Source: Candidatus Omnitrophota bacterium
Lineage (GTDB): Bacteria; Omnitrophota; Omnitrophia; Omnitrophales; Aquincolibacteriaceae
Assembly (NCBI GenBank): GCA_043803685.1
Contig: JAZDJU010000061.1
Coordinates: forward strand, 1-28,515
Direction of reading: 5' to 3'
DNA length: 28,515 nt
A program made the position numbers and the translations under genes. Positions 7,117 to 28,515 of this stretch are shown one piece after another (within the stretch, counting starts at the first letter, position 1; the number at the start of each line of letters is the position of its first letter). Under the pieces are notes generated by a model. The model ran no database searches. It had not been told where the DNA came from and saw only the letters and a program-made list of their open reading frames with translations.

Positions 7117-7168
7117 GGACGGGATTTTAGCATGGGCTAAAAAAAAAGATATGCTATATTACCGTCCA
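7116..7168. promoter_or_regulatory. Symmetric divergent promoter with two back-to-back extended -10 elements
   Basis: Minus strand reads TGC-TAAAAT-7 nt-ATG (MFS gene); plus strand reads TGC-TATATT. The arms 7116-7133 and 7151-7168 form an 18-bp inverted repeat matching at 15 of 18 positions. Confidence 0.6.
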
Positions 7169-7281
7169 AGTCTTTATTTCTTTTCATTCATGGTGCCTTG
7201 GGCGGCACGGATTACCTTTGTTTTTCAAATCAAGGAGAATCAGTGCCGCTTTGTTGAAATGGATACGCATTGGGACCGCTC

Positions 7282-7970: not shown

Positions 7971-7993
7971 ATAAAGGGGTCTGACCCCTTTAT
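7971..7993. repeat. Perfect hairpin ATAAAGGGGT-CTG-ACCCCTTTAT (REP-like; possible bidirectional terminator)
   Basis: 10-bp stem with a CTG loop, lying between the convergent HAD and radC stop codons. Confidence 0.75.
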
Positions 7994-7999
7994 TAGAAT

Positions 8000-8680
8000 T
8001 TAAAGTGAATTGCGTTCGGAAAAGCTGAAATACTGGTTTTCACCGATGATGATATGGTCCAGCACACGGATCGAAACTGTCTGGCAGGCGGCCTTGATCT
8101 TTTGGGTGATCTCGTAATCCTCACGACTCGGCTCGACCTTTCCCGAAGGATGATTATGGACAAGAACAAGGCTTGAAGCGTGAAATTCGAGCGCGGCCTT
8201 GACGATCTCGCGCGGATGGACCGCGGCCTCATCAATGGTCCCGTAGAAAAGGTCCCGCTCCCCGATGATACGGAGCGCCTTGTCCAGAAAGAGGACTTTA
8301 AAGATCTCGCGCTTCTGGTCCCGGAGCGCGGCGGTAAGATAGTCGGTCACGGCTTGCGGACTTCGGACAAAATTTTGGCCGATCATTTTCTCCCGAAGCT
8401 GACGAAGCCCGATCTCCCGGACCGCGGCGAGCATGCAGATCCTGGCTGCCCCGAGACCTTTGGTTTTCCTGAAAGAACCCGGTGGCTCGGCTAAAATCCC
8501 CCGTAAACCGCCGAATTGGAGAAGAAGATCTCTGGAAAAACTTACCACGTCCTGCCCACGCGTTCCCTGTCCAAAAAGAATGGCCAGAAGCTCGGCATCT
8601 GAGAGCGAGCCACTCCCCTTTTGAAGGAGTTTTTCCCTCGGTCTTTCACCCTCCGGCCATTTTCGAATACTATGGATCAT
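8000..8680 (-). CDS. radC: RadC family protein (JAB/MPN domain, UPF0758)
   Basis: ERPREKL, LSDAELLAIL, HhH-like KGLG, VHPREI, HNHPSG...PSRED and VLDHIIIG. Confidence 0.95.
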   Translation of the reverse strand: MIHSIRKWPEGERPREKLLQKGSGSLSDAELLAILFGQGTRGQDVVSFSRDLLLQFGGLRGILAEPPGSFRKTKGLGAARICMLAAVREIGLRQLREKMIGQNFVRSPQAVTDYLTAALRDQKREIFKVLFLDKALRIIGERDLFYGTIDEAAVHPREIVKAALEFHASSLVLVHNHPSGKVEPSREDYEITQKIKAACQTVSIRVLDHIIIGENQYFSFSERNSL

Positions 8681-10347: not shown

Positions 10348-10592
10348 CTAGCACTGTTCTCCATTTGATTTTGGGGGGTTAACAGTACTGCCCAAGTTTT
10401 TATTTCATTTCACGAAGGGCGACTTGGACTGCACTGACTTTAATTCAAATTAAGGGTAGTCAGTGCTGCCCCAATCTCAACCCTGTTTCGATTGATAAGA
10501 ATTGGGACTGCACTGATTTCCAATCATTTTTTATTAATGAAAATCAGGTGCTGTACCGCATACCCCTAATTTCGAATGTGATGCGGTACTAG
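10348..10592. repeat. Tandem array of six different hairpin cassettes (34-40 nt) joined by CTG and bounded by CTAG
   Basis: CTAG|CACTGTT..AACAGTA|CTG|CCCAAGT..ACTTGGA|CTG|CACTGACT..AGTCAGTG|CTG|CCCCAAT..ATTGGGA|CTG|CACTGATTT..AAATCAGGTG|CTG|TACCGCAT..ATGCGGTA|CTAG. Confidence 0.85.
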
Positions 10593-23734: not shown

Positions 23735-25666
23735 TCAGAACTTCAATTTAGGCCCGAAAAGGATCGTCTGCTCTTCCTTTTGGGAGTCCGTGTCCTCGTC
23801 TCCGTCCGCGACAGCTCCGGACTTTGTTTCCGGAGGACGAGCCTCCAGGATCGAAAGCTCCCCCCACCGACCTAACTTGGAACTATTCAGCTCCAGACTG
23901 TTGTCCTTTTCATGAAGAACCGCCTCGAGCCCTTTCCAGATCACCAGATTGTCCGGCGTCTGTATTTTTACTCCCGCGAATATATTGTCAAGCTTCAAAT
24001 CCATGGCCCCGGTCAAAAAAAAGGCCGTCCGGCCCTTCCATATCTTCGAATCCTTAAGCGGTAGATAAGGAAGAAAACCGCGAAGTTGGATGATACCACG
24101 GTCGTAATCAAGTTGCCCCCATTTTCCGTCACGGATATTAAAGATCCCCGAGACTTCGGGCTTCTTAAGGTCCCCTTCCACGGAAAGCGTCCCTTCCAGG
24201 AGACCCCCGAGGGCTTTAGGTAAAGGTTTCGCAGAAAACTGGTGCACGGTCCCAAGATCAAAATCCGCCACCTTCAGAAGAAGTTTCACGTGCGGATTCT
24301 TGCCCGGCTTCGTCACCTGTCCCGTCATCTGGAATTTCTCTCCCCACGTAGAGCGGATGCCCGTAACACCGAGTGGACTTAACTCAAAAGAACCTTTGAG
24401 GTCTTTAAAGGGTTGGCGATCCAGAATAAAATAGTCTGTCTCATATTCTCCTTTAAAGAAAATGTCACGGCCCTTCCAGCGCGGCGACATGGCATGGAAA
24501 AAAAGTTTCCCCTGCGTCACAAGGTCCATCCCGAAGATCTTGATGTGGTCCAGGTGAAAGTTGAACATAAAGTCCAGCCCCCGGAGATTGGAATGGATCG
24601 CCATCCGCTTTGTTCCCTTCGCCACGCTCAGCTCGTAGTTACCACTTGAAAAATCGAACTCTCCACGCCCCTCGTAACCCCGATTCAAAGCGATCGAATC
24701 GATCACAAAACGTTTCCCGTCCTGGTGGACCTTCCCCTGGAAATTAAAAGCCCGTTCGTCCACCGGCTGAAAAGTCCCTTCGAGCGTCTGGTGCGGCAAA
24801 TTAAGCGCGAAATCAAGCTTCATCAAGGGCATGTCTTTCCCGACCCGGAGATGCCCGCTGATCTCGGGCTGCCCCTCATGGTTCAAAAAGGCCCCGGAAA
24901 GCTCCGCGTGCCACCCGTAGAGCGTCCCCTGCAGTCCCTCAAAAAAAAGATCGTTCCCGACCCAATGGATCTTTCCCTCGAGGGCTTTCAAAGGAAGAGG
25001 AATATCGGAGGCAAAATCGGTCGCGTTCAGTTCCAGCCAAAGATCGTGGGTGTTATTGAAGGGATCCACCTCACCGTAGATACGGACCCGCCCCTCCAAC
25101 ATTCCGGACATGCGGGCCCGCACATCCACTCCAACTTTTTTACCGAAGGAAGGCAGGATCTTACCCTCCAGGTCCTTGAGCAGGATCTCTTTACCGAGGG
25201 ACGAGAGCAGATAACGGACCTCCCCGCCCTTGAAATCGAGCGATGGCATGGCGGGACCCGACGTTCCTTCGGGAGAACCTTCAAAATAGCGGTAGGGAAA
25301 CTGGCCCTGTTCGATCAGGATCGCGGGATTTTTCAATACGACACCCTCGGGCGCGTCGAATTTCCGCGTCCAAAGCTGTTTCAGTCCATAACGAAAAAGG
25401 AGGCGGTCCGCGCGTATCGATTGTGAGCCGCCTTTGATGGAAGGGGTCTCGATGAGGATCTTCTCGAGGGACAACTGGTTCAGGCGGTAAGGACGGATCT
25501 GACCAATGTGGACAGTGGCTTTAAGATACTCTCCGACCTTTTTCTCGGCAAAGGCTTTAAATTCCTGGGAATGCGCCAGACGTCCGAGAAGAAAATAAAA
25601 GAGAAGCGCGACCGTCACCCCCGCAAGAGCGAGGGAGAAAAGGAAAACCTTCAAAAAGCGGAACAT
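23735..25666 (-). CDS. Hypothetical envelope protein, AsmA/TamB-like (putative beta-groove lipid bridge)
   Basis: N-terminal TM anchor, then ~600 aa of amphipathic beta strands (e.g. LEGTLSVEGDLKKPEVSGIFNIRDG, LSVxGxLxxP being TamB/AsmA-like). Ends TILFGPKLKF. Family assignment is from pattern only. Confidence 0.6.
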   Translation of the reverse strand: MFRFLKVFLFSLALAGVTVALLFYFLLGRLAHSQEFKAFAEKKVGEYLKATVHIGQIRPYRLNQLSLEKILIETPSIKGGSQSIRADRLLFRYGLKQLWTRKFDAPEGVVLKNPAILIEQGQFPYRYFEGSPEGTSGPAMPSLDFKGGEVRYLLSSLGKEILLKDLEGKILPSFGKKVGVDVRARMSGMLEGRVRIYGEVDPFNNTHDLWLELNATDFASDIPLPLKALEGKIHWVGNDLFFEGLQGTLYGWHAELSGAFLNHEGQPEISGHLRVGKDMPLMKLDFALNLPHQTLEGTFQPVDERAFNFQGKVHQDGKRFVIDSIALNRGYEGRGEFDFSSGNYELSVAKGTKRMAIHSNLRGLDFMFNFHLDHIKIFGMDLVTQGKLFFHAMSPRWKGRDIFFKGEYETDYFILDRQPFKDLKGSFELSPLGVTGIRSTWGEKFQMTGQVTKPGKNPHVKLLLKVADFDLGTVHQFSAKPLPKALGGLLEGTLSVEGDLKKPEVSGIFNIRDGKWGQLDYDRGIIQLRGFLPYLPLKDSKIWKGRTAFFLTGAMDLKLDNIFAGVKIQTPDNLVIWKGLEAVLHEKDNSLELNSSKLGRWGELSILEARPPETKSGAVADGDEDTDSQKEEQTILFGPKLKF

Positions 25667-25681
25667 GTACTCGCTTTCGCG

Positions 25682-25853
25682 CTATCCTTGTCTAAAACTT
25701 GATTTCTCAAATGGTTGACAAGGACAGCCCTGACTATCATTTTCTTTTTCTGAATGGTAGTCAGGACAGCCCCAATCTCAGCTCCGCTTCGATTGATTGG
25801 GATTGGGACTGCCCCAATTTCAACTCCGTTGAAATTGATAGGCATTGGGACTA
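25682..25853. repeat. Tandem array of four hairpin cassettes (39-40 nt) joined by CAG/CTG and bounded by CTA
   Basis: CTA|TCCTTGTC..GACAAGGA|CAG|CCCTGACTATCATT..AATGGTAGTCAGGA|CAG|CCCCAATCTCA..TGGGATTGGGA|CTG|CCCCAATTTC..CATTGGGA|CTA. GGAC recurs at 25722, 25764, 25806 and 25848 (42-nt period). Confidence 0.88.
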
Positions 25854-28322
25854 GGTCGCTTTTTCGAAAGAGATCCGTTCGCCACGGATCTCCGCCACGA
25901 TCTTGTCACCTTCCTCGAATTTCCCGCCTAGGATCTCTTCGGCCAACACATTCTCAATGAAGCGCTGGATCGTCCTCTTGAGAGGCCGGGCGCCAAACAC
26001 AGGATCGTATCCCTGATCGATCAAGAACTTCAGGACCTCTTCGGAAAGGACCAGTTCGATCTTCTTTTCCTTGAGACGTTCATGCACTTCCTTGAGCTCG
26101 ATATGGATGATCTGCTCCAGGTCCTGACGCGTGAGCGGATGAAAAACGATCGTGTCGTCGACCCGGTTCAAAAACTCCGGACGGAACACTTTTTTCGTTT
26201 CGTCCAAAAGCTTCTGCTTCAATCCGTCGTAATTCATCTCGTCTTTTTTTGGCGCAAAACCAAGGTCCCCCTGCTTCCGGACAAGGTCCGCCCCGACATT
26301 CGAGGTCATGATCACGATCGTGTTCCTGAAATCCACTTTGCGGCCGAATGAGTCCGTCAAACGTCCTTCTTCCATGAGTTGAAGGAGAATGTTGAAGACA
26401 TCCGGATGAGCTTTTTCGATCTCGTCCAGGAGCACCACCGAATAGGGGCGCCGGCGCACTTTTTCCGTGAGCTGACCGCCCTCTTCGTAACCCACGTACC
26501 CCGGGGGCGCCCCGACAAGACGCGACACGTTGAATTTTTCGCCGTACTCGGAGCAATCCACCACGATCACGGCATCCTGATCGCCGAACATGAAATCCGC
26601 GAGCGCGCGGGCGAGAAGCGTTTTCCCGACACCGGTCGGCCCTAAAAAGATGAACGAGCCAATGGGACGGCGCGGATTGCGAAGTCCGGAACGGGAGCGG
26701 CGTACCGCGTGCGAGATGGCACGGATCGCCTCGTCCTGACCAATGATCTTCCGGTGGAGCTCTTCTTCCATTTTGAGAAGACGCGCTGTCTCCTTTTCCT
26801 CTAAACGGGAAAGAGGAACGCCGGTCCACTTGGCGACCACGTACGCGATGTCTTCTTCAGTCACCTGCACCTCGACCTCGGACTTGGATTCCTTCCAGCT
26901 TTTCTTCATCTTCTGGAGTTCTTCCTTGGCCTTGCGCTCGTCGTCCCGCATTTTCGCGGCCTTCTCAAAATCCTGGGCCTTAATGGAAGCTTCCTTCTCG
27001 CGGCGCAGGGCTTCGATCTCGGTCTCAGCTTTCTTCAGGTCCTTGGGCATGGTCGTAACAGACAGCCTCGCGCGCGAGGCTGCTTCATCGATAATATCGA
27101 TCGCCTTGTCCGGAAGGAACCGTCCGGAAATGTAACGGTCCGAAAGTTTGGCCGCAGCCTCGAGCGCCTCGTCCAAGATCTTCACCCGGTGATGGGCTTC
27201 GTATTTGTCGCGGAGTCCCTTCAGGATCTGGATCGTGTCCTCCACCGACGGCGGTTCCACGACCACGGTCTGAAAACGACGGGCAAGCGCCGCGTCTTTT
27301 TCGATATATTTCCGGTATTCGTCGAGGGTGGTCGCTCCGATACACTGGATCTCGCCCCGGGAAAGAGAAGGCTTCAGGATATTCGACGCGTCGATCGCGC
27401 CTTCCGCGCCTCCGGCACCCACGAGCGTATGCAATTCGTCGATAAAGATCATGACATTTTCCGTGCGACGAATTTCGTCCATCACGGCCTTGATACGTTC
27501 TTCGAATTGACCTCGGTATTTCGTTCCCGCGACCATCAGCGCGAGGTCGAGCACGACAATCCGCTTGTCCGCCAGGATCTCCGGCGCGTCGCCATTGATG
27601 ATCATCTGAGCCAGGCCTTCCACGATCGCGGTCTTTCCGACCCCCGCCTCTCCCAAAAGCACGGGGTTGTTCTTCGTGCGGCGCGCGAGGATCTGGATCA
27701 CACGCTGAATCTCATCCTGACGGCCCACAACCGGGTCCAGTTTTCCGTCCCGGGCGAGTTGTGAAAGATCGCGGCCAAACGCGTCAAGAGCCGGCGTCTT
27801 GGTCTTGGATTTCCCCGCGGGTCCACTCCCCATCCCGGAGCCACCCATCGTGGGCGACGGCGCGCCAGGTTCTGAATTGGGCGTCGTGGAACCTAAGAGT
27901 TTAATGACCTCGGAGCGCACCTTATTCAGATCAAGCCCCACATTCATGAGCACGTGACTCGCGACGCCTTCGCCTTCCTTGATAAGACCCAGGAGCAAAT
28001 GCTCGGTCCCGATATAGTTGTGTCCAAGACGACGGGCTTCGTCCATCGCGAGCTCGATCACTTTCTTGGCCTTGGGCGTGAACGGGATGTCCCCCGAAAC
28101 GACCGTGCTCGGTCCGAACTGGACAAGCTTCTCGACTTCAAGACGGATCGTATCCAGTGACAGTCCAAGGTTCTGGAGCACCGCCGCCGCGACACTTTCC
28201 CCTTCTTTGATAAGCCCAAGCAGAATGTGCTCGGTCCCGATATAGTCGTGGTTAAAACGCTTGGCTTCTTCCTTGGCAAGAATGATGACTTTACGAGCTC
28301 TTTCCGTGAAACGATCGAACAT
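25851..28322 (-). CDS. clpC: ATP-dependent Clp protease ATP-binding subunit ClpC
   Basis: Two ClpN repeats (MFDRFTERA, HxYIGTEH), Walker A motifs GEAGVGKT and [11 protein letters not shown] coiled coil ([11 protein letters not shown]), ClpP-binding loop LGF. GGAGG SD. Confidence 0.97.
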
Positions 28323-28356: not shown

Positions 28357-28398
28357 CTGTCACAATACTTATCAAATTCAACGAAGTTGAAATTGGTG
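28357..28398 (-). repeat. Inverted copy of the CCCCAAT-type cassette with an adjacent CTG junction, upstream of clpC
   Basis: Reverse complement of 28360-28398 is CACCAATTTCAACTTCGTTGAATTTGATAAGTATTGTGA, 33/39 identical to 25812-25850. CTG at 28357-28359. Confidence 0.8.
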
Positions 28399-28515
28399 TT
28401 CACGCATACTCTGTTGTTAAGGAAGGTTACTTACCTGTTGTAGGAACCGTAAACGTTACAACTCAAGATGTTGATGTTGATGTTGTACTTGTTCTCGAAA
28501 CCTACACCATTACCT
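28399..28515 (+). other. Start-less coding-like fragment resembling a PEGA/Ig-like surface-protein repeat; possibly foreign or chimeric
   Basis: Open frame VHAYSVVKEGYLPVVGTVNVTTQDVDVDVVLVLETYTIT. About 40% GC by hand count, with GTT/GTA Val codons unlike the neighbouring genes. Confidence 0.5.

Follow-up and report, generated by a model that had tools for sequence, protein, structure and literature searches.

The hairpin array at the stop codon of clpC arose by insertion and consists of two copies of an 81-base twin-hairpin repeat, one nested within the other. Within this repeat, a central triplet pairs with the triplet that is repeated at the ends of the element, so the repeat likely moves as a folded circle of single-stranded DNA that chooses its own 3-base target. 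The window (the whole stretch of DNA analyzed) is the 28,515-nt contig JAZDJU010000061.1 of assembly GCA_043803685.1, and the genome to which it belongs is labeled G000. The features of the window are listed below by coordinates and strand.

25851..28322, minus strand: clpC-type Clp ATPase gene (host), 823 aa, with a TAG stop
25851..25853, minus strand: TAG, both the clpC stop codon and the left (target) triplet of the outer doublet; a single TAG in empty relatives
25812..25850, minus strand: C1, C-type hairpin of the outer doublet, its inner stem with a C(GGA)G loop
25809..25811, minus strand: CAG junction, left flank of the inner doublet
25770..25808, minus strand: C2, C-type hairpin of the inner doublet, its inner stem with tandem GA mismatches
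25767..25769, minus strand: CTG, central triplet (putative guide) of the inner doublet
25728..25766, minus strand: X2, X-type hairpin of the inner doublet, with a covarying 8-bp stem and an A-rich loop
25725..25727, minus strand: CTG junction, right flank of the inner doublet (CAA in free TAG-class doublets)
25685..25724, minus strand: X1, X-type hairpin of the outer doublet, its nearest neighbors being the clpC-site copies in G012, G006 and G002
25682..25684, minus strand: second TAG (the repeated triplet)
25667..25681, minus strand: native spacer of 15 nt (17–24 nt in empty relatives)
23735..25666, minus strand: downstream host gene, 643 aa, with a weak DUF748 match
10348..10592, minus strand: first array, six units (A-B-C-D-E-F) that form three nested doublets of a sister family, at the tsaE stop, with 4-nt CTAG ends
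7162..7278, minus strand: third element, a CGG-class C unit split by a B-X doublet, part of it deleted
28359..28396, plus strand: C-type unit upstream of clpC, its X partner lying on the end of contig C74

On the minus strand, the array at clpC reads C1-CAG-C2-CTG-X2-CTG-X1. A preliminary description of this DNA had recognized four hairpin units (25685-25724, 25728-25766, 25770-25808 and 25812-25850) separated on the plus strand by CAG, CAG and CTG, and had read the locus as clpC, TAG, array, TAG, 15 nt and the ATG of the next gene; our analysis confirmed both, with CTA at 25682-25684 and 25851-25853 and the next ATG at 25666. The same description placed the start of both arrays at a TAG within CTAG. 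This is true of the first array, at the tsaE stop, but the far end of the clpC array reads ATAG; only 3 nt are therefore repeated there, whereas the first array repeats 4 nt (CTAG). The minus strand of the clpC array folds with −34.5 kcal/mol (z −6.1), and 0 of 200 shuffled sequences folded equally well. In the fourth unit, an inner hairpin with the C(GGA)G loop is favored over pairing of the terminal arms.

To compare the clpC site among relatives, we used the 17 genomes of the genus that have both genes in the locus, G000 included. Alignment of this intergenic region had been suggested as a check on an insertion that duplicated TAG, and single-stop empty sites were indeed found in 10 of the 17 genomes; eight of these have TAG and two have TGA, with 17–24 nt from the stop to the ATG. 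Elements occupy the site in G000 and G012 (four units each), G002 and G006 (three units) and G008 (two units), in every case between TAG and TAG. The site of G015 holds a sister-family array with doublets nested inside it, and that of G011 holds an unrelated spacer of 96 nt. At other loci, we started from 128 arrays in relatives, 95 of which mapped to G000 and 17 of which had both flanks well aligned. In 10 of these 17 rows, representing eight distinct sites, exactly 3 nt were left in G000; the remaining seven rows were filled in G000, contained remnants or had longer gaps. At the eight empty G000 sites, the triplet equals the left flank at three and differs from it by one or two bases at five, in genomes that are well diverged. 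The C79 site also shows empty and filled alleles; the comparison covers sites with reliable alignments to relatives, which leaves out the C16 site and the C114 A-F site. Orthologous sites that are either empty or filled, with one triplet repeated, establish insertion, and we hold this insertion and the doublet anatomy with high confidence.

Although a single hairpin cassette had been proposed as the mobile unit, the unit that recurs is a doublet consisting of a C hairpin, 3 nt and an X hairpin. A well-paired second hairpin follows 102 of 107 C units. Across G000, an HMM search identified 113 clusters, including 88 with a score of at least 18, compared with four weak hits in the reversed genome. 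In G000, each element has a left unit of C, A or B type, which three bases separate from a right unit of X, F or a related type, and the repeats are multicopy and mostly extragenic. The consensus sequences of the C and X units differ, and each unit folds on its own; the A-F doublet of the sister family is partly inverted, and that family has 4-nt repeats (CTAG, CTAA, TTAG) opposite a 3-nt center. No doublet enclosing a gene and no gene-bearing (autonomous) copy was found in G000 or in the loci fetched from relatives.

Among 40 relatives, multicopy array matches were present in 18 of 19 genomes of the genus and in 0 of 21 genomes of other genera. G013, a member of the genus (1.5 Mb, 97% complete), had neither an array-type match nor a Y1 match, which makes this small genome a helpful contrast in a hunt for the enzyme. 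A pattern search of GTDB identified at least 105 loci; among the 80 matches listed, the record titles were Candidatus Omnitrophota or “uncultured bacterium.” A pattern scan of IMG/VR gave 0 matches, a distant blastn search of the array against plasmids and phages gave none, and Rfam at gathering scores gave 0 hits over the window.

The proposal that arrays grow by insertion at their own junctions was supported at another site, where two and four units can be compared. There, G008 has C-CAA-X, and the four units of G011 comprise related outer units that enclose an inner doublet; in G007, the C loop itself contains a doublet and CGG is repeated, and seven genomes keep an empty CTAG. Such growth need not have happened at clpC, because the four-unit form is common at many other loci: C-C-X-X was the form (by HMM) of 14 of the best 20 array matches fetched from relatives, all of them away from clpC and some of them orthologous to each other. 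The two-unit copy of G008 has decayed (9–10 differences in X1), which favors entry of the inner doublet at clpC over its arrival in a ready-made four-unit element. The three-unit forms would most simply have arisen by loss of one of two tandem C units.

In 96 doublets, five variable positions of the X stem are Watson-Crick paired in 90–93 copies, compared with 31–47 in shuffled sets; the inner stem of C covaries too, with C(GAA)G, C(AAA)G and C(GGA)G making up most of its loops. Such triloops, as well as tandem GA pairs, are stable in DNA. On the C-to-X strand, T-G wobbles outnumber C-A mismatches by 16:1 and 12:2, and C(GNA)G-type loops dominate one strand; the asymmetry of wobbles and loops points to a single folded strand. 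These comparisons gain no information from positions that the search pattern fixes, among them the initial C of the central triplet.

The flanking triplets follow the central one. Based on 102 of the 107 parsed doublets, the most common left/center/right classes are TAG/CAA/TAG (30), CGG/CCG/CGG (17), CAG/CAG/CAG (9), CAG/CTG/CTG (6) and CCG/CGG/CCG (6), with rarer ones such as TGG/CCA/TGG. The left flank equals the right flank in 69 of 102 doublets (21.8 in shuffles). Complementarity between the first flank base and the last central base is seen in 95 of 102 on the left (50.6 in shuffles, maximum 66) and in 89 of 102 on the right. The rule is that a Y-N-G flank is complementary to a C-N-R central triplet. 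It replaces the CTA(G)/CWG target put forward in the preliminary description; CGG is about as common as TAG. We then reduced 156 sites to 60 non-redundant ones by removing orthologous and most nested copies, although kin still share classes and these loci may overlap the genus genomes used for the site comparison. In this set, the pairing of first flank base and last central base was the strongest of 2940 element-flank tests on the left (56 of 60, 30 expected) and held on the right (50 of 60, 28 expected), and the next-ranked signals also involve the triplets. When each element was folded as a circle with its own triplet, at least two of three junction bases were paired in 57 of 60, compared with 38.6 with shuffled triplets. 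The flank and center classes cut across six common X-stem types. A long guide within the loops was considered and rejected, as the longest word shared with the flanks was 5.63 nt compared with 5.51 ± 0.08, with no match beyond the triplet.

Opposite a left TAG, the center is CAA in 38 of 44 doublets and the perfect complement CTA in 0 of 44; together with empty sites that are already TAG or CGG, this argues for an inherited determinant. Part of the covariation can nevertheless arise after insertion, because at C114 the left flank and center changed together (TGG/CCA/TAG in G000 and TAG/CAA/TAG in G007, in an element that is 95% identical). At C79, the left flank alone changed. On a tree of element bodies, each trait changed 11 times, with only two supported independent pairs. 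The left flank also matches the right arm of X at 7–8 of 8 bases in 17 of 180 doublets, where 3.5 would be expected, and roughly six of these share one array-internal context; the long matches may reflect extended targeting, conversion or tandem duplication. At three positions in G000 (C79:43538, C79:47367 and C92:18840), the right arm of X plus the triplet repeats approximately 11 nt of the left flank; the repeated segment at C79 contains a likely start codon, and that at C92 overlaps what we take, from its motif, to be the end of a tRNA gene. A few sites have tandem units with flank repeats of 11–24 nt, which recombination explains as well.

A three-locus tree placed G000 outside a supported clade of 12 genomes, and carriers are scattered among empty sisters at clpC (G000, G012, G002 and G006), C79 (G000, G004 and G005) and C114 (G000 and G007). 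X1 units at the same site are each other's nearest among 132, which makes independent look-alike insertions at clpC in those four genomes unlikely. The clpC arrays of G000 and G012 differ at 7 of 166 bases, and adjacent four-fold sites are 60% identical. Overall, same-site copies have a median identity of 0.91 versus 0.64 at four-fold degenerate sites and are more alike in 21 of 22 pairs, these pairs being non-independent and limited to copies that are still recognizable. The possibility that homologous recombination had carried a flanking patch between genomes was not supported, since flank identity is not raised in carriers (100-nt bins, three sites). The simplest reading is an old insertion followed by slow evolution in place and repeated precise loss.

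The preliminary description had the element surviving mainly at amber stops, but only 3 of 54 loci of the clpC-array family abut stops, as do 14 of 34 loci of the sister family, as counted with a crude ORF caller. A suggested count of stop types did show the enrichment: the abutted stop is TAG in 15 of 17 cases, compared with 492 of all 2362 stops in the genome. The link to amber stops is genuine; it is a consequence of the target triplet and not a survival route for most copies. At an amber stop, a TAG-class copy does no harm, since it leaves the stop intact. The reading frame is open for 300 nt on both sides of two of the five copies tested, as an insert of 84 nt permits, and in-frame doublets lie in G000 inside ORFs of ~5359 aa (C98:21308) and ~1151 aa (C117:49327). 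Orientation showed no bias relative to replication: local GC skew, which is an indirect proxy when a genome is fragmented, gave 27 of 54. The clpC-array family also has no orientation preference relative to genes; in the sister family, 26 of 34 loci run in the same direction as the upstream gene.

Judged from the sequence patterns, a mechanism in which the central triplet guides a single-stranded dumbbell is probable. The element would be excised from single-stranded DNA with one flank triplet. The resulting circle of ~84 nt would close as a dumbbell, with the two stems joined into one rod, because the junction triplet pairs with the central triplet. The circle could then re-insert beside a triplet able to replace the junction triplet, and precise loss could proceed by the reverse reaction or by slippage between juxtaposed triplets. 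Contigs of four sequencing runs, which derive from relatives, yielded no usable signs of excision, and no circle was seen. We give roughly even chances to the fuller reading, in which an HUH (Y1-type) nuclease encoded by the host cuts and rejoins the folded single-stranded DNA of a protein-less element and the central triplet serves as guide. The HUH enzyme is favored by analogy only, and a Y1 enzyme as the mover has slightly less than an even chance. The most far-reaching version is rather doubtful: an 84-nt self-targeting element whose single-stranded circle is a fully paired dumbbell, in which one internal triplet would program both excision and target. This triplet would have been re-programmed several times (TAG, CGG, CAG, CCG, TGG), with targeting sometimes extended to ~11 nt via the X stem; the mover would be a nuclease or recombinase that falls outside the described RAYT/IS200 classes, and the element would enter and leave genes without a scar and be conserved in place far beyond synonymous sites.

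We searched for a cognate enzyme at 32 Y1 loci (3 from G000, 29 from relatives), and in these incomplete genomes 0 of 32 were flanked on both sides by the element. A doublet lies near two of the 32; the doublet at one of them, L002, is absent from three orthologues. L002:1150-2670 encodes a Y1-like gene without the first HUH histidine, and the doublet lies before this gene. The gene is present as two ORFs in G000 and as a 429-aa open frame in G004, G005 and G007, and it lies behind a conserved leader with a resemblance to a c-di-GMP riboswitch. IS110 was not found in G000. This genome has one reverse transcriptase, three DDE_Tnp_1 matches and ten phage-integrase matches, none of them linked to the element; one of G000's matches, L188, looks XerD-like.

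Other movers would account for part of these data. A tyrosine recombinase, similar to an integron integrase or Xer, could act on the folded single-stranded dumbbell and exchange one strand within a 3-nt overlap, in which case the central triplet would merely complete the duplex and the junction triplet would give homology. IntI and XerC recombine folded single-stranded DNA, and the dumbbell is a continuous two-arm duplex with a 3-bp core and frequent central mismatch; the lack of strand bias, the perfect tandem copies, the 17 of 180 long matches between flank and X arm (3.5 expected) and the ten phage-integrase matches in G000 are also consistent with such an enzyme. However, the units are without attC-type RYYYAAC/GTTRRRY boxes, a recombinase site would be expected to have arms longer than 7–8 bp, roughly six of the 17 long matches go back to a single array-internal context, and no integrase is linked to the element; we regard this explanation as unlikely. 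We assign a lower probability still to a MITE moved by a DDE transposase with duplications of 3 nt (or 4-nt YTAR), in which complementarity arose later from template-switch repair of a quasi-palindrome. IS5-like elements make 4-nt YTAR repeats, as does the sister family; empty and filled sites show true target-site duplications (3 nt, and 4 nt in the sister family), the co-change at C114 occurred after insertion, and G000 has three DDE_Tnp_1 matches. Such repair should, however, put CTA opposite TAG, which was seen in 0 of 44 doublets. Moreover, the terminal repeats of the whole element are ~3 bp (only TCC...GGR is shared) and not at least 10 bp, the inverted repeats being internal to the units; the TAG, TGG and CGG targets are non-palindromic with fixed orientation, and the wobble and loop asymmetry indicates one folded strand.

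The least probable of the explanations considered is that the repeats are host RNA elements for mRNA stability or translation control, their mobility being old and their pairing reflecting RNA structure. Same-site copies that are more alike than four-fold sites (0.91 versus 0.64, in 21 of 22 non-independent pairs) would fit such a role, as would the start codon enclosed by some X stems and the co-orientation of the sister family with the upstream gene (26 of 34 loci). We consider it very unlikely given that the clpC-array family has no orientation preference to genes, most sister species have empty sites, the loops are DNA-type triloops and Rfam gave no match.

The array works like a REPIN or an IS200/IS605 derivative but lacks the features of membership in either (no GTAG, unlike hairpins, no cognate gene). 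Non-autonomous derivatives of IS200/IS605 are known as PATEs. In IS200/IS605, the cleavage site is recognized through pairing with a guide at the 5′ foot of a hairpin, and TnpA-REP can cleave on both sides of a single hairpin (PMC3479197, PMC8266576); REP doublets are described as mobile units whose insertions fall within or next to one another (PMC3116915). As in REPINs and REP-BIMEs moved by RAYT, a non-coding multicopy hairpin doublet replicates here and clusters by insertion into or next to copies, and cleavage sites on both sides could be recognized by pairing with a short motif at a hairpin's 5′ foot. In contrast to the GTAG (GT[AG]G) foot of those elements, the foot here is G plus CAA, CCG, CAG, CTG, CGG or CCA, and this central motif varies and tracks the target. 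Further, the C-family hairpins are unlike each other and 3 nt apart instead of being inverted copies within one long hairpin, the flank repeat is a clean 3 nt, and no RAYT gene flanked by copies was found. The likeness to IS200/IS605 and its derivatives lies in two subterminal hairpins and strand-specific folding and, in the proposed mechanism, would extend to precise excision and an element-encoded target choice by DNA-DNA pairing; the sequence rule expected of a guide that pairs with the cleavage or target site is seen here. The differences are that one central triplet faces both flanks, antiparallel, in place of two tetranucleotide guides, that no parent IS with tnpA was found and that there is no lagging-strand bias; IS608-type elements prefer the lagging-strand template (excerpt of PMC6006769).

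Integron attC sites and CTX-phage attP would share with the element a folded single-stranded substrate, structure-based, sequence-tolerant stems and 3-nt crossover homology, but the doublets have no cargo gene, R/L box consensus or linked integrase; there are no ORFs between the units and no integrase in the window. TIRYTs are, like this element, repeats of the same genome, where they are associated with Y1 and bound L001, but they form a separate family unrelated in sequence to the array; an excerpt of PMC6006769 gives the Y1 subclasses and the TIRYT ends GGGG[AT][CG]A[CG]. Unlike a CRISPR- or TIGR-type array, whole units recur at many loci, without constant repeats separated by unique spacers or long guides. 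No description of this repeat in Omnitrophota was found in a search of openly accessible literature. The spread of REP-like repeats is a long-standing open question, and an excerpt of PMC8266576 describes no full REP transposition pathway. Here, a natural series in which the putative guide and its target vary in concert, and for which many sites offer both empty and filled alleles, makes the guide model directly testable. If the dumbbell model is true, the repeat would be among the smallest target-programmed mobile elements and would suggest that an uncultured phylum has a further enzyme acting on single-stranded DNA. For genome annotation, the repeat accounts for in-frame inserts of 84 nt and for breaks between contigs in these genomes.

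Elsewhere in the window, the gene downstream of clpC had been labeled AsmA-like; all that remains of this label is the DUF748 match, which at E 8e-4 is below the cut-off. The first array (10348-10592) is nested, with outer doublet A-F and, inside it, B-E and C-D. The reverse end of contig C74 of G000 overlaps positions 28362-28396 of the window by 35 nt and bears the X partner of the C-type unit upstream of clpC, so that clpC is probably bracketed by elements at both ends. The same contig end carries ORFs that we take, from sequence motifs, to be mcsA-like and mcsB-like. The last 119 nt of the window (28397-28515) look mis-joined. The RadC-family gene (8000-8680) has several paralogous segments in contigs C113, C39, C73, C35 and C23 of G000. 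Other repeat families coexist at 7977-7989 in the window and genome-wide, including the TIRYT-like GGGGTCAGACCCC (20 strand hits), pairs of AAAAGGGGACAGGC, GGACGGATCCGTCC (13) and AGCCACG repeats, and several of them share intergenic hot spots in relatives.
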